A DNA stretch of 64,000 bases from a phage. This document shows positions 7,714 through 35,972 of the stretch, one piece after another (the first letter of the stretch is position 1; each line of letters begins with the position of its first letter). The stretch lies in sequence record PZ386970.1; one strand, 5' to 3'. The notes below the pieces were generated by a model that saw only the letters and a program-made list of their open reading frames with translations, was not told where the DNA came from and did no database searches. Both the position numbers and the translations under genes were made by a program.

Positions 7714-8814
7714 TTACGCTGTGAAGATTTTATCCCACATCGCAACAACTGCATCTCGATTATACTTCTTCCATACTGCTTCAGCACGTTTAACTCGAGC
7801 TTCGTATGTGTCAGTGAATTCTAATACAGCTTTTGTGTAAAGCGCAACTACTTCTTTCTTAGGAGTAGAAGAATCAATTTCTACACGCACAGTATCTGGG
7901 TCATATTCGAATGTCGCATGAGGATAATCCTTAAAAACTAACTGGATTACAGGGACACCTTTAGAGATGGCTTCAATAGAACTATTCTCTACCGTACCTG
8001 TGTCAGGACACGTATTAATAAGTGCTTTAGCTGTTTTAAGACGTTCCATAATTTCACTGTGTGGAGCATCAATAATAACAGGATATTTAGCTGGTGGTGC
8101 CCATTTACTAGGACAGTATCCTGCACCATTTTCGCCTAGTGCTTTAATCGCTTCAAGAGCAACATCAGTACGACGCATTTTAGTGTCATAACGTTGTGCA
8201 CTAATAATCAGATCAGTCGCCGGAAGAACTTCAGGTTTCTCATTCAAACAAATAACCGGATAATCTTCGGCTTCAAACAACGGATTTGCTCGCCAATAAT
8301 CATAATCAATTTTGTCAGTCAGTCCCGAAGTCATATAACAATATTTACGTTCAAATTCACGGAAGGCTTTAGTAGGAGCATAACTCTTACCACCATTCTT
8401 ATGAATTTGAATAGTCTGGTCCCAAATTTGAACAATGCCACGAGATACCGGCTCAAATGGTGTTGCCATAAAATTCTTATGAACTTTAGAGAGACCTGCG
8501 TCTTTAATTGCCTGAACGGTTAGTTTGGTCGGTTCCATTGTAACAACGAAATCGTACTCATTAATGCCGGCTAGTTCAACAATCTTACGAGCCATAGTAT
8601 AACTCATACCTAGACTGAATTTAGTCAGATGACCAACAGGATGATGATTAACCTTCCAATCACCAAATGTGTCATTATCAAAGCCGATATAATCAATATC
8701 AGCACCGATGGACACAAGATATTTCAACACATTTAAATGTACTGCTTCAAGACCACCTTGTACACGTTCTGGGTTAAATGGGACTGCGCGAGATGGGATA
8801 AACATAACTTTCAT
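7714..8814 (-). CDS. GT-B fold glycosyltransferase (GT4-like), candidate DNA sugar transferase
   Basis: 366 aa; N-terminus MKVMFIPSRAVPFNPERVQGGLEAV is the GT-B donor-scaffold signature; C-terminal E..SIEAISKGVPVI motif; lies between rIIA and 39. Confidence 0.7.
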   Translation of the reverse strand: MKVMFIPSRAVPFNPERVQGGLEAVHLNVLKYLVSIGADIDYIGFDNDTFGDWKVNHHPVGHLTKFSLGMSYTMARKIVELAGINEYDFVVTMEPTKLTVQAIKDAGLSKVHKNFMATPFEPVSRGIVQIWDQTIQIHKNGGKSYAPTKAFREFERKYCYMTSGLTDKIDYDYWRANPLFEAEDYPVICLNEKPEVLPATDLIISAQRYDTKMRRTDVALEAIKALGENGAGYCPSKWAPPAKYPVIIDAPHSEIMERLKTAKALINTCPDTGTVENSSIEAISKGVPVIQLVFKDYPHATFEYDPDTVRVEIDSSTPKKEVVALYTKAVLEFTDTYEARVKRAEAVWKKYNRDAVVAMWDKIFTA

Positions 8815-8821
8815 AATTAAG

Positions 8822-8857
8822 CCTTATTAAAATTAAAATGAAGCTCCCGAAGGAGCT
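8822..8857 (-). terminator. UUCG-tetraloop hairpin (AGCUCC-UUCG-GGAGCU) plus U-rich tail, overlapping the HNH gene stop
   Basis: stem-loop followed by UCAUUUUAAUUUU on minus strand. Confidence 0.45.
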
Positions 8858-9654
8858 TAGGACATCCAACACATTTTATAACCTTTGCAGGTTCTGTTAG
8901 GATTATTTAATGCTTTCAATATATTAGAAGACCCTATACCTAAATACTCCCTTAATTCATAAAGATAGTTAAAATCAATAGTTTCACCTGTTTTTACACT
9001 TGTGATTCTTATAGGCCTTCTTTCATATTTAGATTTATACAACTCTCTAGTCTTAGCTTTAGTTTCTTCTGACCTAGGAGTGTATGGTTTAAATCCTTTT
9101 GTTTTAAATGTTTCCATTCTTGATTTAGTTATTTTATCCTGGTGTTCTTTTGTTTTTACAGGTGCTTTTCGCCCATTCTCCCAAGATAACTTGTTGGCCT
9201 GTATTATTTTATCTATTGCTTCTTGCGTATGAGTTTTACCATAAAATGGATTTAATTCGCCTATACGTTGTGAAGCAATATGTGACATTAATTCTCTTGT
9301 TGCTTTAGTATGTTTTTTACCTTTAAATGGGTTGCCATTTTTAGCAATCCATTCTTTCATAAATCTAGAGTGCTCTTTAGAGAATTCTTGTTTAAGCCAA
9401 TCATAATCTCTAGAATTTCTAGCTCCCATGTAAAAAGCTCTAATAGCCATAAGCGTAGAACGGTTCTTATGAATTTTATAAAGCAATAAATGGGCGATAA
9501 AATGCTCTCTAGGGGTCATTTTAACTAGATTTGATTTAGCATTACTCCCGCCCATAGATTTAGGCAAAATATGGTGAGTTTCAGTATAATTAGGAATAGT
9601 GCTGCGGTTTTTAGCCGCAGCGATAAGTTTATCATAAATTTTACGATAATTCAT
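8857..9654 (-). CDS. HNH homing endonuclease with NUMOD-like repeats (free-standing, Mob-like)
   Basis: HHILPKSMGGSNAKSNLVKMTPREHFIAH HNH motif; repeated NPFYGKxHT motifs; ATG overlaps gene 39 stop (TAATG); track start is an upstream TTG. Confidence 0.75.
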   Translation of the reverse strand: MNYRKIYDKLIAAAKNRSTIPNYTETHHILPKSMGGSNAKSNLVKMTPREHFIAHLLLYKIHKNRSTLMAIRAFYMGARNSRDYDWLKQEFSKEHSRFMKEWIAKNGNPFKGKKHTKATRELMSHIASQRIGELNPFYGKTHTQEAIDKIIQANKLSWENGRKAPVKTKEHQDKITKSRMETFKTKGFKPYTPRSEETKAKTRELYKSKYERRPIRITSVKTGETIDFNYLYELREYLGIGSSNILKALNNPNRTCKGYKMCWMS

Positions 9655-11474
9655 TATCCTAGCATCCAATCTTTACGGAGTTCAGGGTCGTTACCCATGA
9701 GCATTTCAAATAGTTCTTTCCAATTTTCAGGAAGTTTAACTACGTCGTACACAGGGTTTTGAATCATTTCTTTATATTCATCCCGCTGAAGTGAGCCCAA
9801 TCCCTTGATGTATCGAATACTATGCTTAGGCAGTGTATCTTTAGCTTCTTCATACTCAGCTACAGTATAAAACCATTTTTGAGATTTGCCAATTTGTGCA
9901 ATAATTACAGGTGTTTTAACAAAGCGAATACGTCCTTGTTCAAACAATTCAGGCCAATTACTAAAGAAAGCAAGCAAAGCCGGATAGATACTTCCAAGAC
10001 CGTCATGATCGGCATCGGTCATAATTGCAATATTACGATAGTTCGTATTCTCTGCCTTTTCACCAAGAATAAGACCTGTGATAGCACAGATATCAAAGAG
10101 CTCTTTGTTCTTCATCATATCAGCATATGACATACCCCAGCTATTCATCACCTTACCACGTAACGGGAATCCACCATGTAGTTCACGGTCACGAACATCA
10201 ATGAGATAACCAATTGCCGAATCACCTTCTGTTAAGAACAATGTCGTATCTGCATCTTTACCACATTGGTTAGCTTTAATATGCTTATGAACCTTAGCTT
10301 TAGTTGCCTTTTTAGCTGCTTTAGTTTCTGCAGCCTTTTCTGCTGCCAATTTACGAGCTAATGCTGCTTCAACAATAGGCATAATCAAGGCTTCGTTTTT
10401 AAGAAGCGCCTGAGCAATTTTCTTAGCATCTAATTGGATATGATTACGAATATCACCATACGTTGACGTTAAACGTTCTTTAGTCTGAGAATCAAAACGC
10501 ATGTTGCTCATGTCTCTAATAAACATCAACATTGTGAGACATTCTTTAACACGAGCTTTAGTGACTTCAATACCCTTATATTTCTTTTTAATACCCGGCA
10601 AAAGATGTTCGCAGATATCATCCATTACACATTCAACATGATGACCGCCATTTTTAGTATGGATGTTATTAACATAAGTTAAATGACGGAAGCCATCTGG
10701 TGATGTTGTGAATGCTATAGAGACTTTATCATTTTCTTGAATGATGTTATCTTCACCAAATTGTTTAGCAAATCGTTTAAAATTACCATCAACCTTTTTA
10801 CCATTAAATGTGAACTTGATATCAGGATAAACGACTGCCAATGTTTGAAGTCGGTCTAAAGTAATATCTAAATAAATTTGAGATAAATTATGCTCTTCAA
10901 ATGAAGAGAAATCAGGAGTGAAGATTACTTTAGTGCCTTTACCTTTAGATTTCTTAGAAGACCATGATTTGTTTTCCATTCCATTTGAACAGTTAACAGT
11001 GATTTCATTTTCACCATCTGACGTGATGCCTGTAAACAACGTAGAGAAGATATTAGTTAAACTACTCCCGACGCCGTTCATACCACCAGTCTTGCGTTCA
11101 GAATCATCACCAAAGTTACCACCAGCTTTTGGAATAGTCCAGGCTGCTACAGGCCCAGGAATTTGTTCACCTGTTTGGTCGGTAACTAAACCTTGAGGAA
11201 TACCACGTCCGTTATCTTCAACCGAAACTTGATTATTTTTAATTTGCACATCAATTTTATTTGCAAACTTAAATGATGTACGAATAGCTTCATCAACTGA
11301 GTTGTCAATAATCTCATCGATTAATTTAACCAGGCCAGGAACATATTCAACTTGTTGATATTTACCAAACAAAAAACGCTCATGTGCTTCTTTGGCCGAA
11401 GAACCAATATACATACCACTACGTTTCTTAATATGTTCTACATCTGACAATACCTTAATTTCATTTTTAATCAT
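9654..11474 (-). CDS. 39: DNA topoisomerase II large subunit (GyrB-like ATPase + Toprim), unsplit gp39
   Basis: 606 aa; MIKNEIKVLSDVEHIKKRSGMYIGSS N-terminus; Toprim LFLTEGDSA...DADHDG at C-terminus in the same ORF. Confidence 0.9.
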   Translation of the reverse strand: MIKNEIKVLSDVEHIKKRSGMYIGSSAKEAHERFLFGKYQQVEYVPGLVKLIDEIIDNSVDEAIRTSFKFANKIDVQIKNNQVSVEDNGRGIPQGLVTDQTGEQIPGPVAAWTIPKAGGNFGDDSERKTGGMNGVGSSLTNIFSTLFTGITSDGENEITVNCSNGMENKSWSSKKSKGKGTKVIFTPDFSSFEEHNLSQIYLDITLDRLQTLAVVYPDIKFTFNGKKVDGNFKRFAKQFGEDNIIQENDKVSIAFTTSPDGFRHLTYVNNIHTKNGGHHVECVMDDICEHLLPGIKKKYKGIEVTKARVKECLTMLMFIRDMSNMRFDSQTKERLTSTYGDIRNHIQLDAKKIAQALLKNEALIMPIVEAALARKLAAEKAAETKAAKKATKAKVHKHIKANQCGKDADTTLFLTEGDSAIGYLIDVRDRELHGGFPLRGKVMNSWGMSYADMMKNKELFDICAITGLILGEKAENTNYRNIAIMTDADHDGLGSIYPALLAFFSNWPELFEQGRIRFVKTPVIIAQIGKSQKWFYTVAEYEEAKDTLPKHSIRYIKGLGSLQRDEYKEMIQNPVYDVVKLPENWKELFEMLMGNDPELRKDWMLG

Positions 11475-28159: not shown

Positions 28160-29324
28160 CGAAATCTTCCATTTCGTCAAGGTCATTTTCTATATCTGCT
28201 GCAGACGGAGCATCAGAAGTTTTAACCGGAACTTTAGTTGTTGCTTTGCAATTAATAAGGTCGTTAACAGCGTCATCAACTTCTTTAATAGAAGAGATAG
28301 CACCTAGTTTATATTTAGTTTCAATTGCATCTCGGAAAGGTTTGTGTTTAAACAACGGTCCCCAGAATTCTACACAATCAGTAGCTTTAGCACGCCACGA
28401 TTTCTCTTCACGAATCATTTCACCTGTTTCTTCGTCAAGGAATTCACGAGCATACCAACCAGCTTTAGGCTTAACAACAAATCCAATTTCAGTTGCCATT
28501 TCTAACAAGCCACTGAATGGGTCGATACCACCATCAAAATTAACTGTGATTGGGAAAGTAGATTTTTCTTTAACAGTACGAGATTTTTCTGCTTTCAACG
28601 TGAAGTCATAACCTGTCAATTCTGTACCTTCTTTAACCTGACGTTTAGAGATAAAGAATACAGTGTTAGCAGAGTAAAGAATACCTGTACCACCACCCAT
28701 AATCTCTTTAGGATACAATCCACCAATTTCCATTGCGGTATGGTTAATTGCAACACACGGAATATCTTTAATAGTCAGATACGGGGTCACAATACGGAAA
28801 AGAGATTTAAGTGCCTTAGCACGAGACATATCACCTACGACTTTCTCGTTCAATGCATCTTCGGTTTCTTTCTTAGATGCAGTATTACCGATTGAATCGA
28901 TAAAGATAATAACTTTATCACCGCGTTCAATTGCATCAAGCTGATTAGTCATATCAACTTTAAGTTGTTCGACGGACTGAATTGGTGTATGAACTACACG
29001 GTCTAAATCAACACCCATTGAACGGAAGTAAGATTCTGAAGCACCGAATTCCGAGTCATAAAACAAACAGATTGCATCTTTATATTTCTTCATATACGCT
29101 GCAACCATGGTCAGCCCAAACAATGTTTTAAAGTGTTTAGAAGGAGCAGCAAAAATAGTTAAGCCTGATTGCAACCCGGCATTCAGTGCACCACCTAATG
29201 CAATATTCAACATCGGAATACGAGTAGGGACTTCATCACGATTATTAAACAGCTTAGACTTAGTCAAGTCGGCAGTCATTTTAGAAGTAGAAGCTTTAAT
29301 CAGACGAGATTTTAAATCAGACAT
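28152..29324 (-). CDS. uvsX: UvsX recombinase (RecA-like)
   Basis: 390 aa; RecA-like core; acidic C-terminus. Confidence 0.9.
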   Translation of the reverse strand: MSDLKSRLIKASTSKMTADLTKSKLFNNRDEVPTRIPMLNIALGGALNAGLQSGLTIFAAPSKHFKTLFGLTMVAAYMKKYKDAICLFYDSEFGASESYFRSMGVDLDRVVHTPIQSVEQLKVDMTNQLDAIERGDKVIIFIDSIGNTASKKETEDALNEKVVGDMSRAKALKSLFRIVTPYLTIKDIPCVAINHTAMEIGGLYPKEIMGGGTGILYSANTVFFISKRQVKEGTELTGYDFTLKAEKSRTVKEKSTFPITVNFDGGIDPFSGLLEMATEIGFVVKPKAGWYAREFLDEETGEMIREEKSWRAKATDCVEFWGPLFKHKPFRDAIETKYKLGAISSIKEVDDAVNDLINCKATTKVPVKTSDAPSAADIENDLDEMEDFDE

Positions 29325-29377
29325 TGTATTTTTCCATAGGCATCATTATATTTTACTCATGTTTAAAAGATAAGATG

Positions 29378-29402
29378 ATTATATACTAAGGGTTATACAG
29401 CA
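29378..29402 (-). promoter_or_regulatory. putative middle promoter for uvsX (imperfect MotA box TGCTGTA, 12 nt, TATAAT)
   Basis: spacing matches MotA-dependent promoters; box has one mismatch. Confidence 0.35.
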
Positions 29403-29432
29403 TTTAAAACTTTAAATGGCTCTTAACGAGCC
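29400..29432 (-). terminator. hairpin (GGCUC-GUUAA-GAGCC) with U-rich tail 3' of kinase gene
   Basis: short stem, AU-rich downstream. Confidence 0.3.
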
Positions 29433-29971
29433 CATTTAATGATTTCTGTAATCAAATAATTACGTTCGCTTGCATTAAATCCTATAACTTTGTTAGCACC
29501 ATCATGATTAAGTAATTGATACGTTTGGATTTTGTTATGAATTGCAAACTCTTCAAAATATGAAATGACTGTATTAAAACCGAATGAAGACAAAGTAATA
29601 AGGTCGTCTTCAAAACTTTCAGTCATTTCGTTACGTGTTAAAATAATTGTGAACACATCATGGTTTTGGCAAAGACGAACATAATCCTGTTCATAAACGT
29701 CAAGAACCGAGTCCACATCTTGTCGAATACGTCCATAAACCCAGTTACTAATATATCCACGGTCTAACAGATAAATCTTAGTAGGGTCTAAATAATTCAA
29801 CATCGTTTCGAAACAACCAACTTCATTTCGAGACTTAACATCGAAACGCCCATCAACTGTTCGTTTAGGGAAATCAATCTTTACATATCTTTCACTAATT
29901 TCCATTATGTCATTAATGAAAGTTGTTTTACCAGCATTATCTGGGCCGTCTACTAAAATAATTTTAGCCAT
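29423..29971 (-). CDS. P-loop nucleotide kinase, thymidylate kinase-like
   Basis: Walker A ILVDGPDNAGKTT; downstream DRGY motif resembling the Tmk DRx motif; 182 aa. Confidence 0.55.
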   Translation of the reverse strand: MAKIILVDGPDNAGKTTFINDIMEISERYVKIDFPKRTVDGRFDVKSRNEVGCFETMLNYLDPTKIYLLDRGYISNWVYGRIRQDVDSVLDVYEQDYVRLCQNHDVFTIILTRNEMTESFEDDLITLSSFGFNTVISYFEEFAIHNKIQTYQLLNHDGANKVIGFNASERNYLITEIIKWAR

Positions 29972-29972
29972 T

Positions 29973-30872
29973 TTATTCCTCGATTACGACATCTTCGTAT
30001 TTAGGTATATTATACGGTGAAGAAATTAAAGCATTAAAGTAGATGAACTCACCAAGACCTGGATGGAATACTTCTTCAGGATTTTCGAAATATTGAATTT
30101 TCGGACGTCCTTTAAGAATTTGATAGTACTCAGTTTTAGTTGGATTAAAAATTCGAATCAGCGCTTCTTCAGGATACTTATTTCTGTCGAAACTATTATT
30201 TGGATCAGTTATATAAAGCGGTTGACCTAATTGAATTGCGCATTCAACAACTTGTTCAAAACGATAGCATGGGTCACTAATTCGAAATGGATGAAAAATA
30301 CCATCTAGATGAATAGGAGCCAAATCACCTACAAGACGCTGCATGATGGAAGGACGTATAACTTTCTGAGTTACGATAATCTTATTACCATCTGCACCTG
30401 CGTTAACCAGCACTTCTTTTTGACGTTCATTCAACACAGTAGTTTGAAGTGAACGATTAACTGACAACATATCGGTTTTTAAGAATTCGTCAATATAAAA
30501 ACGTGGTTTATTAGGGTCTGCCGTGATATTGAAATTGAATTCTACATCAAAAGCGCCGTCATATCCAGTGATATCTGTTATTAGAAAATCACAATCATAA
30601 TAAGCAATTAATGAATCAACCACAAATTCATTTTCAGACCAGAAATATTTACGAGTGTTATACGCGTTATCTTTATACCATAATGGAACAAACTTAAATT
30701 CCGGGAAAAGACGTTCACATTCTTTAATATCAGATGCATTACGTGGATATGTAATCACATCACCCGGATTAGCACGGTGCAAATGAAGTTGGAAGTTGCC
30801 ATCCTTAAGGATAGCATACTGTCCAGTTTCATAAGACCGCATACTCAAGATTGGTACGCGGAAAATAGCCAT
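29973..30872 (-). CDS. hypothetical protein (299 aa), cluster member of unknown function
   Basis: TAATG-coupled to the hydroxymethylase-like gene; no family recognised. Confidence 0.5.
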   Translation of the reverse strand: MAIFRVPILSMRSYETGQYAILKDGNFQLHLHRANPGDVITYPRNASDIKECERLFPEFKFVPLWYKDNAYNTRKYFWSENEFVVDSLIAYYDCDFLITDITGYDGAFDVEFNFNITADPNKPRFYIDEFLKTDMLSVNRSLQTTVLNERQKEVLVNAGADGNKIIVTQKVIRPSIMQRLVGDLAPIHLDGIFHPFRISDPCYRFEQVVECAIQLGQPLYITDPNNSFDRNKYPEEALIRIFNPTKTEYYQILKGRPKIQYFENPEEVFHPGLGEFIYFNALISSPYNIPKYEDVVIEE

Positions 30873-31588
30873 TAGTCAAGGAATCCTTTAACATAATCAA
30901 AATCACGTTCAAACACATGGGCACTTACCATGGTATGAGTATAATCACCAACTTCTACACCACATTCGTTAGCGATATAATGAAGTAATTTTCCTTGGAG
31001 ATAAAAATCCAACTGCATAACAACAGCACAATTCTGAGAACGCATATGACAGTGGGTATAAAGCTTACCATCACGAATATAATAAGTCACTGAGTCAGTA
31101 CATGGATATTCAAGCGTTTCGTCCGAATCAAGCAAAGCCTGATCAGAACTTTCTAGAATTTGGAACACAACTCTTCGGGAGTTAGGCTTCTCTTTAAGTT
31201 CTTTTAGAAGAGCTGGTAATTGGGCCGCAATTCGAGGACCATAGAAAGTGTTGAAGTTCGCAGGCAAAGCATCTGATTTTGGTTTAGAAATAAATTTAGC
31301 GACATTAGGATATGCCTTAAACGCTTCTTCTGCATCAGTACCACCAGAAATCATAAACTTCCAGAAATCTTCGGCATATTCATAAGAGATGCGGTTAATA
31401 CGTGGGTCGGTCATTTTGAATGATGATGGAGTGTCAACAACTACTGTCATGGACCCAATTTCATTACAACGTCCAATACGAGAATCAGTTACGAATTCCG
31501 GGTTTTCTAAAATTTCACGATTGACTGCTTTAAATGCGGCTTGAAAATCTGCTGCTTTGATATATTTCATTGTGTTATGTTTTCCCAT
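30872..31588 (-). CDS. 42: thymidylate synthase-family pyrimidine hydroxymethylase, gp42-like (dCMP hydroxymethylase), divergent
   Basis: KPNSRRVVFQI and PCTDSVTYYIRDGKL align with T4 gp42 NPDSRRGIMIY and MCTNTVQYLIRDKKI (catalytic Cys); 238 aa. Confidence 0.7.
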   Translation of the reverse strand: MGKHNTMKYIKAADFQAAFKAVNREILENPEFVTDSRIGRCNEIGSMTVVVDTPSSFKMTDPRINRISYEYAEDFWKFMISGGTDAEEAFKAYPNVAKFISKPKSDALPANFNTFYGPRIAAQLPALLKELKEKPNSRRVVFQILESSDQALLDSDETLEYPCTDSVTYYIRDGKLYTHCHMRSQNCAVVMQLDFYLQGKLLHYIANECGVEVGDYTHTMVSAHVFERDFDYVKGFLD

Positions 31589-31607: not shown

Positions 31608-31633
31608 ATTATATACTCAATTCGTAAAGCTTA
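31608..31633 (-). promoter_or_regulatory. putative middle-type promoter (GCTTTAC box, 11 nt, TATAAT)
   Basis: upstream of the hydroxymethylase-like gene. Confidence 0.3.
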
Positions 31634-31870
31634 TTTGAATTTCTTGGCAATGTTGATATAACGTAAAGCTTCAGAATCTATACTTCCAAGAACACTATGA
31701 AGGAATGCATCAGTGTAGTATTCCAATTGAACAGGTTCTTTAATCACTTTAGCCGCTTTGGTTTCAAACAGGCCCATCAGGGCCTTTTTAAGAATTTGTT
31801 CGTTAGTGTTCAGTTTTATAGTCAAAATCTCTTCATTAAGTTTATAATTAAAAGTTTTTCTAGAAATCAT
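31631..31870 (-). CDS. hypothetical protein (79 aa)
   Basis: ORF only. Confidence 0.4.
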   Translation of the reverse strand: MISRKTFNYKLNEEILTIKLNTNEQILKKALMGLFETKAAKVIKEPVQLEYYTDAFLHSVLGSIDSEALRYINIAKKFK

Positions 31871-33027
31871 TCCGGGTACCTCAAAGCGTCATCAGAGTTA
31901 GTTATATCAATAATAGATATAGAGTTTTCTGCTAACCCGTTTTTAGATAATTGACGTTTATAATACCTTTCACAATATGTACACGTTGACCCACAGATTT
32001 CATTAGCACAATCAAAATCCGGATGTCTGAACCACCTTTTTTCTAAAAAGCCATCTAACAAAGAGGTTTCAATATTTACTGTATGTGAAAACTCAGTCTC
32101 ATTTTCAAGAGTGAAAATAGTCTCTAAAGGCTTCCACAGTTCTAACAAATTACCTTCAAACTTTTCAGAAGCGTATGCTTCAAGAACTTTCAAAATGTAG
32201 TCTGTGCTACCTGTACGTCCTGAAACTTTGAATTGAGTGATACCAATATCATTATAAAGTTTCAAATCTTGTGGACGAACAAAACGAGTTCTCAACCAGT
32301 TAAACGGGTCTGTATCACGAGCTTTAATACAGTGCTGCATAGGATATCCATTTAAGGATTTAGCATCATCAGCTGTAACATCAGTACTATGGAAAATATA
32401 GCAAGAGTCACGATAGCTACAATGTGTTGTATACCCTTTACCAGCATTAGAACAGAACTCATTTACAAGAACTTCAAATATTATATTGTTTTTATTGCAA
32501 AACTCTGCTGCACGCTTCAGGAAAGAAACTGAACGGTTCTTATGAATTCCACAGCAGACCTTTTTGATATTATACTGGTCATGTAAGTATTTGATTTGAG
32601 TTACAGCATCGACATGTAGAATTGTTGAAACTTCAATCTCAATGTCTTTATTGACTTCACGAACAATTTCCATAACAACAGGGTTAGCGATAGTAATACG
32701 CCATACGCCTATTGACCAAAGATACTGAACATAATCCTGAATAGCTTTCTTCTTCCACTCAACTAGTTCTCTTTTTGAACCAGGATTTATCGTGTTGAGT
32801 GTATAGTTAAAGCAAATACCTAATTCGTTACAACGTTTAACATAATCTTCTAACATCTTTTTGTCAACGTCAGGAAGCCTAAAATCAGGTCTGGCTGCTA
32901 CAAAAGCCATTTCTCTTGTAGAGCCGTATACTTCGTTTATCAAGCTATTAGGATAAGTTTTATTGAGCTCTACGATTTTATCAAGAAGAGCTAAATCAAA
33001 ATTCGTTCCGATTTTAAAAGTATTCAT
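31867..33027 (-). CDS. Cys-rich putative metalloenzyme, weak resemblance to peptidase-U32-family Fe-S proteins
   Basis: 386 aa; EVLVNEFCSNAGKGYTTHCSY resembles the U32 signature; additional C-terminal CxxxxCxxxCxxC; N-terminal pattern similar to U32 barrel. Confidence 0.35.
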   Translation of the reverse strand: MNTFKIGTNFDLALLDKIVELNKTYPNSLINEVYGSTREMAFVAARPDFRLPDVDKKMLEDYVKRCNELGICFNYTLNTINPGSKRELVEWKKKAIQDYVQYLWSIGVWRITIANPVVMEIVREVNKDIEIEVSTILHVDAVTQIKYLHDQYNIKKVCCGIHKNRSVSFLKRAAEFCNKNNIIFEVLVNEFCSNAGKGYTTHCSYRDSCYIFHSTDVTADDAKSLNGYPMQHCIKARDTDPFNWLRTRFVRPQDLKLYNDIGITQFKVSGRTGSTDYILKVLEAYASEKFEGNLLELWKPLETIFTLENETEFSHTVNIETSLLDGFLEKRWFRHPDFDCANEICGSTCTYCERYYKRQLSKNGLAENSISIIDITNSDDALRYPE

Positions 33028-33083: not shown

Positions 33084-33452
33084 TTATAGATTCGGTTTAT
33101 ATGATTTAAATGTTTCGAATTCGCCTTTATTCATAAGAGCTTTGAATTCGTCAGGACGCATAGCTTTGTCGTCGATAATCCAATCATATACTGGTTTATG
33201 TGTTAGCAAATTATGGTACTTCAAACCAATGTTTTCCAAGTTCTGAATCAGACTTGGGAGAATGTCAATTGCTATACGACCAGGACCTACTGACTTCATA
33301 CCACGAGCAGTGTAAAGCGTTATGGTATGCCCTGCATCATACAGGGCATTAATGGCAGACACCATTTCGACGTCTGGTTTGAAGTTCACGTAATCACGAT
33401 TGTTATTCCACTCTGTTATACAATCATCGACATCAAAACAAAGATTAAGCAT
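33084..33452 (-). CDS. small HAD-like phosphatase (122 aa from MLNLCFDVDD)
   Basis: FDVDDCIT (motif I-like), TARG, DWIIDDK (motif IV-like); resembles KdsC-type phosphatases; motif I imperfect. Confidence 0.35.
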   Translation of the reverse strand: MLNLCFDVDDCITEWNNNRDYVNFKPDVEMVSAINALYDAGHTITLYTARGMKSVGPGRIAIDILPSLIQNLENIGLKYHNLLTHKPVYDWIIDDKAMRPDEFKALMNKGEFETFKSYKPNL

Positions 33453-33469
33453 GTTTTCTACACGGTGCA

Positions 33470-35155
33470 TTAGATTCGTTCCCATTGATGAGTGATATCG
33501 CCACCGATTGGACGATAGGAAACACCAGTTTCTTTATCAGTTAGTACCCATTTACCAGGATTTTTTGTAATCAGAGTAGCCGTTACAGGTTCTGCTACGT
33601 CATAACTAATAGAGCCGTCCTGAAGTACACGGCCCATGTTACGTAATTGCTTAGTCAGAAGTTCCATGCCTTTATAATATGCGGCTACCGCTTTAAGTGG
33701 ATTATTCTTGAAATAACCACCCAATGCAATCCAGATAATTGCCACCGCCAAATGATGATACTCGTTAAACGAACTCATCTTTCCATATTTGTAAACTAAT
33801 GGATTGATGTTAATAGTCACATTACAAGTTGTTTCATCAATAGTAAACTGACCCCAGGTCGGATTAGCATTGAATTCATCATAACCTGAAACAGCATAAA
33901 GCACTTTAGCTTCATCATATAATTTTGGCCCGTAAATCTTGGTTTCACCAAAATATCCACGAGGGTCGATAAACTTGACTTCGCCGTTATCAGTAATCAT
34001 AGTATTACTGAAGTTCGGGTCACCGTGAATAACAGAGTACTGTCCCTGAGAACGGTTATGATAACGAATAAGATGTTCTAAAGCTTGTTTCAACATTGGC
34101 TTCAGACGTCCAATCTTAGTGTAGTTCACGTGTGTGATTTTACCAAATGAATCAATCAATGGCTGAATGCTTTCACAACGATCAATAACTTTCGTATAGA
34201 ACTCTTTAGTGAAATCACGGCGAACAGTTTCAGGACTTACAAAATAAGTGTCTGTGCTGAATTTCAGTGCATCTAAAATTGCATCAACAATTTGTGGACG
34301 AGCAAGACTTGATTTGGATTTAATATATTCAAATGCCGGCTTACCTTTAATGCGTTCCATTTCAAAGTTATTTTCATTAACAGAAACTAACTGAGGAACT
34401 GAATCTGATTTCACTTTCAAATACCACGAAATCTCATCTTTCTGAAGAGCTCGACCCTGTTCGGTTAATGCGAATTTAGTTACAGTTTCTTCACCAATTT
34501 CAACTGCATTAAAACTACGATTAAGTTCACGAACTTCATGAGCTTTTTCAAGTTTAGGCATATCACCTAAATCAATTATATTCATAAGCTCTGATTTATT
34601 GAATGCGCCGCTGTAAAGGAATTCTACGAAATCACGTCCTTTGCAGTATTCATGAATTTCCTCATCGGTAGAACCCATATAGAATTCCCAGTCTTTGAAT
34701 TGATAAATTCCTACAACATTACCGCCTGTTGCACCTACATTAGTGATATTTTCACCGTCGAAATTATATCGACATTCATCACCCTTAACATAGATTGCGT
34801 TAACATTCCAAGACCATGAACCAAAATCAGGAATAATATCGCACCAGTTAACAATTACGTTATGGCCGTCTAAATCTTTGTGTAATTTAGCAAGAGCATA
34901 AGCAGAACCATACGCTTCATCAACTGTACGAATAGTCACATTGAACCCTTCTTGCTCACAATAAGCTCGAACAGTTTCAGCAAATTTTGAATGAACTACT
35001 ACAATAATTTCATCTGCGCCAAGGTCAGAATAAATTGTATATAAATTGCTCAGAATAGTGTCTTGTTTATAGTTAACAAGCACCTTAGGAATATGATGCG
35101 TTATTGGATACAAACGAGTTGCCAGTCCGGCACCAAGAATAACAGCTTTTTTCAT
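33470..35155 (-). CDS. bifunctional sugar-1-phosphate nucleotidyltransferase (N-terminal) / APH-like sugar kinase (C-terminal)
   Basis: N-terminus MKKAVILGAGLATRLYPIT (GxGTRL NTP-transferase motif); C-terminus VIHGDPNFSNTMI...FIDPRG (Brenner HGDxxxxN and DxE/D kinase motifs); 561 aa. Confidence 0.65.
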   Translation of the reverse strand: MKKAVILGAGLATRLYPITHHIPKVLVNYKQDTILSNLYTIYSDLGADEIIVVVHSKFAETVRAYCEQEGFNVTIRTVDEAYGSAYALAKLHKDLDGHNVIVNWCDIIPDFGSWSWNVNAIYVKGDECRYNFDGENITNVGATGGNVVGIYQFKDWEFYMGSTDEEIHEYCKGRDFVEFLYSGAFNKSELMNIIDLGDMPKLEKAHEVRELNRSFNAVEIGEETVTKFALTEQGRALQKDEISWYLKVKSDSVPQLVSVNENNFEMERIKGKPAFEYIKSKSSLARPQIVDAILDALKFSTDTYFVSPETVRRDFTKEFYTKVIDRCESIQPLIDSFGKITHVNYTKIGRLKPMLKQALEHLIRYHNRSQGQYSVIHGDPNFSNTMITDNGEVKFIDPRGYFGETKIYGPKLYDEAKVLYAVSGYDEFNANPTWGQFTIDETTCNVTININPLVYKYGKMSSFNEYHHLAVAIIWIALGGYFKNNPLKAVAAYYKGMELLTKQLRNMGRVLQDGSISYDVAEPVTATLITKNPGKWVLTDKETGVSYRPIGGDITHQWERI

Positions 35156-35208: not shown

Positions 35209-35340
35209 TTCATACTTTGCCTGTAGACCAATCATAATCCATCCAATTACAAGTGTTGGAATCATTACTGGAGCCGTTAAGCTCCAGTAGATAGTCATGA
35301 CAAGCATCAATAGTAAAAGTCCTATTGTTATTGCTTTCAT
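35197..35340 (-). CDS. small membrane protein (47 aa)
   Basis: manual translation MKAITIGLLLLMLVMTIYWSL...; TAATG-coupled to SIS gene stop. Confidence 0.3.
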   Translation of the reverse strand: MKAITIGLLLLMLVMTIYWSLTAPVMIPTLVIGWIMIGLQAKYECFN

Positions 35341-35972
35341 TATTCGCCTCGTAACATGGCACCTAGTGCACCGCCAGGGTGGAACTTAAGGAAGTCATTA
35401 GAGGTAAATCCACGTTCAGAAGAAAGGTTGATAGCAAACGTATCGATAAGCGCTAACAACAATGTAGTGGACATTGTCGGAGCTAAAGAGTTCTCATCGA
35501 CCTCTACCGCGATGCCTGTACAGAAAGAGTAATCAAAAAGGGCTTCATTTTCTTGCGGAATGTCAGGGTTACAATGTAACAGAATCTGTTTAACCTGAGG
35601 ACGAATCATACGAAGATGTTTAGCAACACCTATCATTTCTTCGGTCTTACCAGAACGACTAATATGAATCAACACATCATTAGGCGCAATGAATCCTGCA
35701 TCACCGTGAGAATAATGCCCGGTGTTCAAGTACATACTAGGAATACCTAGTGAAGCAAATGTCTCAGAAGCTTTAGTTGCAATATTAGCATTCTTACCAA
35801 CACCTGTAATAATTACTCGGCTTTCATAATTACTAAGTCCTGGGCGTCGAAGAGTTTCTAGAATAGCATTATAACGAGCAGGGTTTTGACTAATTACTTT
35901 GGCCATAGTAGCCAAAGAAGAAGCTTGTTTTATGATTGCGTCAATAGCGATAGTGATTGGTGTAGTTTTCAT
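35340..35972 (-). CDS. SIS-domain sugar-phosphate isomerase, KdsD/GutQ-like (arabinose-5-phosphate isomerase-like), no CBS domains
   Basis: VIITGVGKNANIATKASETFASLGIPS...HISRSGKTEE and FLKFHPGGALG match the KdsD SIS domain; 210 aa. Confidence 0.7.
   Translation of the reverse strand: MKTTPITIAIDAIIKQASSLATMAKVISQNPARYNAILETLRRPGLSNYESRVIITGVGKNANIATKASETFASLGIPSMYLNTGHYSHGDAGFIAPNDVLIHISRSGKTEEMIGVAKHLRMIRPQVKQILLHCNPDIPQENEALFDYSFCTGIAVEVDENSLAPTMSTTLLLALIDTFAINLSSERGFTSNDFLKFHPGGALGAMLRGE

Follow-up and report, generated by a model that had tools for sequence, protein, structure and literature searches.

A Tmk-like kinase and a divergent GT-B protein at the end of the arabinosyl-5-hydroxycytosine operon of an RB69-like phage

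Arabinosylated 5-hydroxycytosine in RB69 and related phages

The DNA of phage RB69 contains arabinose, for which ORF003c was proposed as the transferase; ORFs 45-47 were not discussed in that work (Thomas et al., 2018; PMC6024577). The modified base was later identified as arabinosylated 5-hydroxycytosine, not hydroxymethylcytosine (Lee et al., 2026; PMC13326640). In the latter study, gp48 of RB69 was shown to be a flavin- and O2-dependent 5-hydroxy-dCMP synthase, and the gene-1-type dNMP kinase, gp159, to convert 5-hydroxy-dCMP (5hodCMP) to 5hodCDP in vitro; together, gp159 and gp48 suffice for 5hodC to appear in E. coli DNA (PMC13326640). A transferase role for gp46:47 was put forward as a hypothesis, and gp45 was tabulated as a 'nucleotide kinase' and given no pathway step in the text (PMC13326640). 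In phage DLP3, the glycosyltransferases gp76 and gp77 are active only together, and the third arabinose is added on DNA (PMC13326640). The individual DLP3 transferases were inactive on DNA containing 5-hydroxycytosine (5hoC-DNA), including the orthologue of gp46:47, hereafter the GT1 type, which showed no activity with either UDP-Araf or UDP-Arap, and the authors state that first glycosylation at the nucleotide level and at the DNA level could not be distinguished (PMC13326640). The final modification carries no phosphate (PMC13326640). The DNA of phage Thanatos is mono-arabinosylated, and a protein of the GT1 type is its only glycosyltransferase (PMC13326640); this orthologue was tried only on acceptors lacking a 5-hydroxyl, and was reported to form UDP-xylose from UTP and xylose-1-P (PMC12838424). 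The activities of the hydroxylase and of the gene-1 kinase, the route to UDP-arabinofuranose and the addition of the later sugars on DNA have all been shown elsewhere.

The last two genes of the operon and their neighbours

Here, we analysed a window of 64,000 nucleotides (record PZ386970.1), a T4-type phage segment of about 36% G+C that belongs to a Mosigvirus (RB69 group). The stretch at 29300-31000 shares 98.9% DNA identity with Mosigvirus genomes (NHEP29, moskry and the BASEL phages AlbertHofmann, which is Bas47, and ChristianSchoenbein; Bas46/47) and is matched by 197 phage records. An earlier note on this DNA had described two ORFs at 29423-30872, and both exist exactly as given: a P-loop nucleoside-monophosphate-type kinase with a Tmk fold, of 182 aa (29423..29971), and a protein of 299 aa (29973..30872), which we call GT1 and predict to be the first 5-hydroxycytosine O-arabinosyltransferase. 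Both lie on the minus strand, 3' of a ThyA homologue and 5' of uvsX, gene 40 and gene 41. The kinase is identical to RB69 gp45 at 178 of its 182 residues (98%) and GT1 to gp47 joined to gp46 at 294 of 299 (98%), so that the two are orthologues of gp45 and gp46:47, and the gene order of the cluster is that of RB69. Thus, the operon for arabinosyl-5-hydroxycytosine DNA hypermodification in an RB69-like phage, also described as DLP3 gp76-83 and HY126 Afh, ends with GT1 and the kinase. Both have been published, as the RB69-type 'nucleotide kinase' and 'first arabinosyltransferase', with predicted functions. We found no material difference between GT1 and RB69 gp46:47, DLP3 gp79 or Thanatos TH1_063 ('arabinosyltransferase 1', PHROG 3891), the function being predicted here as there, nor between the kinase and RB69 gp45, DLP3 gp78 or RL38J1 gp214, which belong to the same family and have the same Tmk-like structural matches. 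GT1 and the gene at 33470..35155 are each one intact ORF, whereas the RB69 record (L088) splits both (ORF46/47 and ORF52/53); this lends weight to the published interpretation of the splits as sequencing errors, stated for ORFs 46 and 47, which form a single gene (PMC13326640).

The earlier note had also described the 299-aa protein as TAATG-coupled, which holds on one side of the gene. A TAATG stop/start overlap (30870..30874, minus strand) couples the upstream ThyA homologue to GT1 at 30872; the junction of GT1 with the kinase (29969..29981, minus strand) reads GAGGAA-TAA-a-ATG, that is, a Shine-Dalgarno-like GAGGA, the GT1 stop, a 1-nt spacer and the kinase start. Scans of the cluster for sigma-70 promoters and terminators gave site counts not above those in shuffled sequence. 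The 98-nt spacer between the kinase stop and uvsX (29325..29422, minus strand) contains aaaTGCTgtA followed, after 12 nt, by TATAAT, an arrangement that is absent from the list of the sigma-70 scan and by eye resembles a T4 MotA-dependent middle promoter for uvsX.

The ThyA homologue (30872..31588, minus strand; 238 aa) is identical to RB69 gp48 at 237 of 238 residues (99.6%) and matches PDB 9iqc/9ir2 with an E value of 4.5e-162. It carries the signature MRSQN...D of the 5hodCMP synthases, read in the sequence as MRSQNCAVVMQLD and corresponding to D169N and N177D in E. coli numbering. The suggestion of the earlier note that either protein could be a second transferase or an accessory factor of the modification pathway is partly supported and was broadly right, but the chemistry is that of 5-hydroxycytosine and not of hydroxymethylcytosine. 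Further upstream, and likewise on the minus strand, lie the genes that supply UDP-arabinofuranose: a HAD-type sugar-phosphate phosphatase of 133 aa (33084..33485; RB69 gp51, AfhF-like; TIGR01689, E 1.9e-13; PHROG 1238), a bifunctional sugar kinase/UDP-sugar pyrophosphorylase of 561 aa (33470..35155; RB69 gp52:53, AfhE-like; Pfam NTP_transferase, E 8.4e-10, and weak APH-like kinase matches), both with roles assigned by Lee and co-workers (PMC13326640), and an arabinose-5-phosphate isomerase with a SIS domain, of 210 aa (35340..35972; RB69 gp55; KpsF/GutQ TIGR00393, E 4.7e-32; PHROG 5670).

The cluster also encodes, on the same strand, a 79-aa protein (31631..31870; RB69 gp49, PHROG 8601), which only some related loci encode, and a protein of the Peptidase-U32 family of 386 aa (31867..33027; RB69 gp50; Pfam PF01136, E 7.3e-11), labelled 'sugar or heterocycle reductase' in the RB69 paper and not linked there to RlhA-type hydroxylation (PMC13326640). 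The U32 family includes RlhA, which is needed for 5-hydroxycytidine in 23S rRNA, as well as TrhP and UbiU/V, O2-independent, prephenate-dependent hydroxylases (PMC5727448, PMC6599085, PMC10990095). Among the phage homologues (n=21) ten Cys residues are invariant, of which C192 aligns with the essential C169 of RlhA, and the C-terminal part carries a CX4CX3CX2C cluster. The U32 protein may provide an oxygen-independent route to 5-hydroxycytosine. The order kinase-GT1-U32 occurs in four viral loci (L051, L052, L055 and L057) in which there is no ThyA-type hydroxylase nearby; the U32 observation extends to a further locus, L060.

The second glycosyltransferase, GT2 (7714..8814, minus strand; 366 aa), is of the RB69 gp3 type, a second arabinosyltransferase, and lies between rIIA and the topoisomerase gene. 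It has no Pfam match and is essentially identical to the solved glycosyltransferase of phage HY126 (PDB 9iqz/9ir0, E 2.6e-248); that structure corresponds to GT2 and not to GT1. Between GT2 and the gene for the large subunit of topoisomerase, a 270-aa ORF (8857..9669, minus strand) has a NUMOD3 motif (E 5e-9) and is, by its sequence, probably a homing-endonuclease-like mobile gene.

Fold and family of the two proteins

GT1 had been described as having no recognisable family, and this stands for Pfam, NCBIfam (2026 names included) and the sequences of PDB entries, none of which gave a match even when the search was made with a profile of 34 sequences. The only family found is PHROG 3891 (E 1.5e-155), of unknown function. 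Its fold, however, is recognisable: the AlphaFold model (pLDDT 93.9, pTM 0.88) has two Rossmann-like domains separated by a cleft, and as modelled the fold is clearly GT-B. The GT4-like family signature of GT-B enzymes was absent, with no match to Pfam Glycos_transf_1 or Glyco_trans_4 and no E-x7-E motif in the Pfam, NCBIfam and PDB-profile searches; an invariant H270-P-G...E275 may be the counterpart of E-x7-E. Nor was any sequence similarity detected between GT1 and the GT4-like GT2 (hhalign probability, 0.3%). Homologues of GT1 form 138 clusters, in T4-like phages of Escherichia, Yersinia, Edwardsiella, Serratia, Providencia, Pseudomonas and Acinetobacter and in metagenomic contigs. An alignment taken to 35% identity has 39 invariant columns, including S10-M-R-S13, K23-D-G-N26, F196-R-x-S-D200, T222-D-P-N225 and H270-P-G272. 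This conservation, together with 301 profile matches for the kinase, indicates that neither gene is a chance ORF. GT1 occupies the genomic slot of the T4 alpha- and beta-glucosyltransferases and of the T2/RB3-type transferase, from which it differs in being shorter (299 aa) and in having no detectable sequence similarity to them; whereas the T4-type enzymes transfer glucose from UDP-glucose to 5-hydroxymethylcytosine on DNA, the predicted acceptor of GT1 is 5-hydroxycytosine and the predicted donor UDP-arabinofuranose.

Two distant relatives suggest that the family has a wider range of sugars. One (L053, 9452-11104) is fused to an N-terminal HAD phosphatase, and another (L054, 5248-6198) is followed by a UDP-galactopyranose mutase (PF03275, E 5.6e-34). 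The GT1 family is thus not restricted to arabinose; its members probably act in pathways for other furanose sugars too, as in Rhizobium phage RL38J1. The long ORF of L053 had been considered as a fusion of GT1 to the kinase; this was rejected when it proved to be the HAD phosphatase fusion.

The kinase has the Walker A motif G9-P-D-N-A-G-K15-T16, of the GxxxxGK[ST] type, and D70-R71-G72, as the earlier note had read them; neither varies among 20 homologues or across a broader set of 36. With the 36-sequence alignment, hhalign gave a probability of 91% over 142 columns of E. coli Tmk, in which the P-loop, the FPK/REP segment (FP(K/E)R-type), the DR motif (D70-R71 against the DRH of E. coli Tmk) and one lid arginine are aligned. 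The closest solved structures are thymidylate kinases, and both RefSeq and PHROG 761 (E 7.9e-45) carry the label 'thymidylate kinase'. The fold is thus shared with Tmk (PF02223/TIGR00041), but the scores fall far under the family cut-offs: PF02223 was not matched at E <= 0.1, the only Pfam hit being a sub-threshold one to AAA_14, and the match to TIGR00041 (dTMP kinase) reached 16.1 bits against a curated cut-off of 83. The kinase also has no NCBIfam 2026 name and no sequence match to solved structures, either alone or as a profile. In the region of the Tmk lid only one invariant arginine (R113) aligns, the remainder being F-E-D-D-L-I, part of a family-specific F-x-DD-L-I-x-L-S..FN motif that stands in place of the Tmk lid. 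In BFVD, a large gap separates an orthologue of the kinase (E 5e-19) from ordinary viral Tmks (E ~3e-6; TM 0.54-0.67). Thus, the kinase is an NMP kinase of the Tmk superfamily, outside the Tmk family proper. A plain phage thymidylate kinase that supplies dTDP and is unconnected to the modification would agree with the database labels and the closest structures; the TIGR00041 and PF02223 results, the gap in BFVD and the gene linkage described below make it improbable.

Relatives of the kinase fused to a C-terminal HhH-GPD, endonuclease-III-like domain with the motif PG[LC]GKYAADS...EPxDKEL were found in three loci (L080, 8001-9074; L083, 1446-2390; L081, 127-1092; proteins P0179, P0180 and P0185). 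In L080 and L083 the fusion gene lies directly 3' of a ThyA homologue, which in L080 bears the 5hoC signature; L080, which lacks GT1, continues after the fusion with genes for an FMN reductase, a SIS isomerase and a bifunctional sugar enzyme. These fusions led us to consider the kinase as a member of the 5-hmdU DNA kinases (5-HMUDK) of thymidine-hypermodifying phages (M6 gp54, ViI gp67), which are likewise small P-loop kinases encoded beside a ThyA homologue and with relatives fused to a glycosylase-like HhH domain. This was rejected: similarity to M6 gp54 is confined to 82 columns around the P-loop, with the DR motif aligned to F-E, and the two belong to different families (PHROG 800 for M6 gp54, PHROG 761 for the kinase).

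Gene linkage and the level of the first glycosylation

To place the two genes in context, 58 viral loci encoding GT1 relatives were collected and their ORFs scored with profiles of each component of the cluster; linkage was counted over the 50 loci with at least 1.5 kb of flank on both sides of GT1. In 46 of the 50, or 48 if two weaker matches are included, a gene of the kinase family is found no more than 4 kb from GT1. A ThyA homologue is nearby in 46/50, with the 5hoC signature MRS[QN]N...D in all 46, the bifunctional arabinose-activating enzyme in 32/50 and the U32 protein in 20/50. The linked set includes 18 loci in which no arabinose-activating enzyme is nearby, so that the kinase is not a sugar-pathway kinase, and in the metagenomic loci L033-L045 a bare ThyA-GT1-kinase triad has no arabinose genes within 10 kb. 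In the four loci without a nearby ThyA-type hydroxylase (L051, L052, L055 and L057) the kinase-GT1-U32 genes stand beside those for a Pol III alpha subunit and a primase; their kinases were found with a broader profile, which refuted the idea that the kinase tracks the ThyA-type hydroxylase and not GT1. A locus scan seeded with the kinase was too narrow, and mostly returned the same contigs. In L060 the kinase adjoins a YfbR-like 5'-deoxynucleotidase, a nucleotide-pool setting. The order of the genes varies: ThyA-GT1-kinase in Mosigvirus, Acinetobacter phages and Thanatos, HAD-kinase-ThyA-GT1 in JS98, and HAD-kinase-U32-ThyA-GT1 in Marfa. The same slot in the hydroxymethylcytosine (hmC) phage RB3 contains gene 42, a glucosyltransferase gene with an overlapping start, and uvsX. 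No kinase is present there, which indicates that the kinase is specific to 5-hydroxy systems and, like its linkage to GT1 and the hydroxylase, speaks against a plain thymidylate kinase; the linked genes modify cytosine and do not serve thymidylate synthesis. The kinase therefore belongs to the core of the 5-hydroxycytosine glycosylation module, and its presence does not depend on the genes for sugar activation. What is new here is this linkage of kinase and GT1, in 46–48 of 50 loci, which holds where arabinose genes are missing and in four loci without a ThyA-type hydroxylase.

In the pathway that we favour, and to which we give about an even chance of being correct as a whole, the ThyA homologue would convert dCMP to 5-hydroxy-dCMP, an activity shown for the 99.6%-identical RB69 gp48. 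The kinase, as a dedicated kinase for the modified cytidylate, would most likely use ATP to phosphorylate 5hodCMP to 5hodCDP, as its fold, motifs and gene linkage suggest, after which host NDP kinase and the phage polymerase would place 5-hydroxycytosine in DNA. GT1 would most likely move the first, alpha-linked arabinofuranose to the 5-hydroxyl of the base, whether on DNA, as the T4 glucosyltransferases do, or on the mononucleotide; the donor would be UDP-arabinofuranose, which the products of the upstream genes (isomerase, kinase/pyrophosphorylase and phosphatase) supply. GT2 would then extend the sugar chain. What GT1 does and on which acceptor, and which substrate the kinase takes, we infer from sequence and gene context. 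The pathway as a whole draws on the identity to the published RB69 genes and the 98.9% DNA identity to Mosigviruses; the role of GT1 on its position directly 3' of the hydroxylase gene, its translational coupling through TAATG, the ThyA homologues with the 5hoC signature beside GT1 in 46/50 loci and the mono-arabinosylated DNA of Thanatos, which has the GT1 type only; and the role of the kinase on the Tmk fold with its aligned P-loop, FPK/REP segment, DR motif and lid Arg, on its linkage to GT1 with or without arabinose genes, on the nucleotide-pool setting of L060 and on its absence from the slot in hmC phages. By analogy, the kinase would do for a phage-specific modified dCMP what the T4 gene 1 dNMP kinase (RB69 gp159) does.

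The main weakness of this pathway is that gp159 already phosphorylates 5hodCMP, so that a second 5hodCMP kinase looks redundant. The inactivity of the DLP3 GT1 orthologue on 5hoC-DNA also stands against it, as do the formation of UDP-xylose by the Thanatos orthologue, which is unlike a simple transferase, and the fusions of kinase relatives to an endonuclease-III-like domain, which hint at a role at the DNA level. The apparent redundancy keeps alive a different order of events, in which GT1 would arabinosylate 5hodCMP, the Tmk-like kinase would be a dedicated glycosyl-dCMP kinase, the polymerase would take up a sugar-bearing dCTP and only the later sugars would be added on DNA. A kinase would then be needed because the host kinases and the gene-1 kinase would reject the bulky arabinosyl-5hodCMP, and the Tmk-like kinase, otherwise left with no obvious substrate of its own, would have one. 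Such an order would also be in line with kinase and GT1 forming the most constant gene pair (46-48/50), even where the ThyA-type hydroxylase is missing, and with the failure of the DLP3 GT1 orthologue on 5hoC-DNA in a study whose authors cannot separate the two levels (PMC13326640). A further point in its favour is that bare 5-hydroxycytosine would never be exposed in DNA. There, 5-hydroxycytosine is a classic substrate of E. coli endonucleases III and VIII. We nevertheless consider this order of events unlikely, as the characterised phage DNA glycosylations are all post-replicative and the third arabinose of DLP3 is added on DNA (PMC13326640). Moreover, 5hodCTP is evidently polymerisable, and a GT1-kinase fusion was not found, the sole GT1 fusion being to a HAD phosphatase. 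The adjacency of GT1 to the ThyA homologue is uninformative on the acceptor, because the same slot in RB3, with the same overlap, holds a transferase that acts on DNA.

The fusions to the HhH-GPD domain bear on one more reading, in which GT1 would require the kinase as a partner, or the kinase would itself operate at the DNA level, for instance in ATP-dependent access to, or flipping of, the base, or in a transient phosphorylation of the base. In the host, excision of 5-hydroxycytosine falls to endonuclease III. The fused proteins are members of the family with the same motifs (E ~1e-18), encoded directly 3' of a 5hoC-type ThyA homologue, and they parallel SP10 gp186, a 5-hmdU DNA kinase fused to a glycosylase-like domain. 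Dependence on a partner exists in the system, in that DLP3 gp76 and gp77 work only together, and the in vitro tests of GT1 were run without the kinase. This reading is somewhat less likely again than glycosylation of the nucleotide, because the kinase is not of the 5-HMUDK family (M6 gp54 matches the P-loop region only, lacks the DR motif and is in a different PHROG), keeps the NMP-site motifs of Tmk and serves a modification that finally carries no phosphate (PMC13326640). That the kinase is acidic (pI 4.9) and has no DNA-binding domain of its own weighs little, as pI and net charge are uninformative on DNA binding: the values are 5.05 for GT1 and 4.89 for the kinase, against 5.45 for the DNA-binding UvsX.

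Sugar-coated cytosines allow these phages to escape restriction enzymes and several CRISPR systems, which is relevant to phage therapy and to enzymatic tools. The gene set itself has been published, and finding it here adds little. The linkage of kinase and GT1 in 46–48 of 50 loci, regardless of which sugar genes or hydroxylase type are present, sharpens the tests of two questions: why every 5-hydroxycytosine system carries a Tmk-like kinase of its own beside the gene-1 kinase, and whether addition of the first sugar precedes or follows DNA synthesis. We know of no earlier case of pre-replicative base glycosylation in any DNA hypermodification pathway; if GT1 and the kinase did act on the nucleotide, they would be the first, and would represent a way of avoiding the exposure of the repair-prone 5-hydroxycytosine in DNA.
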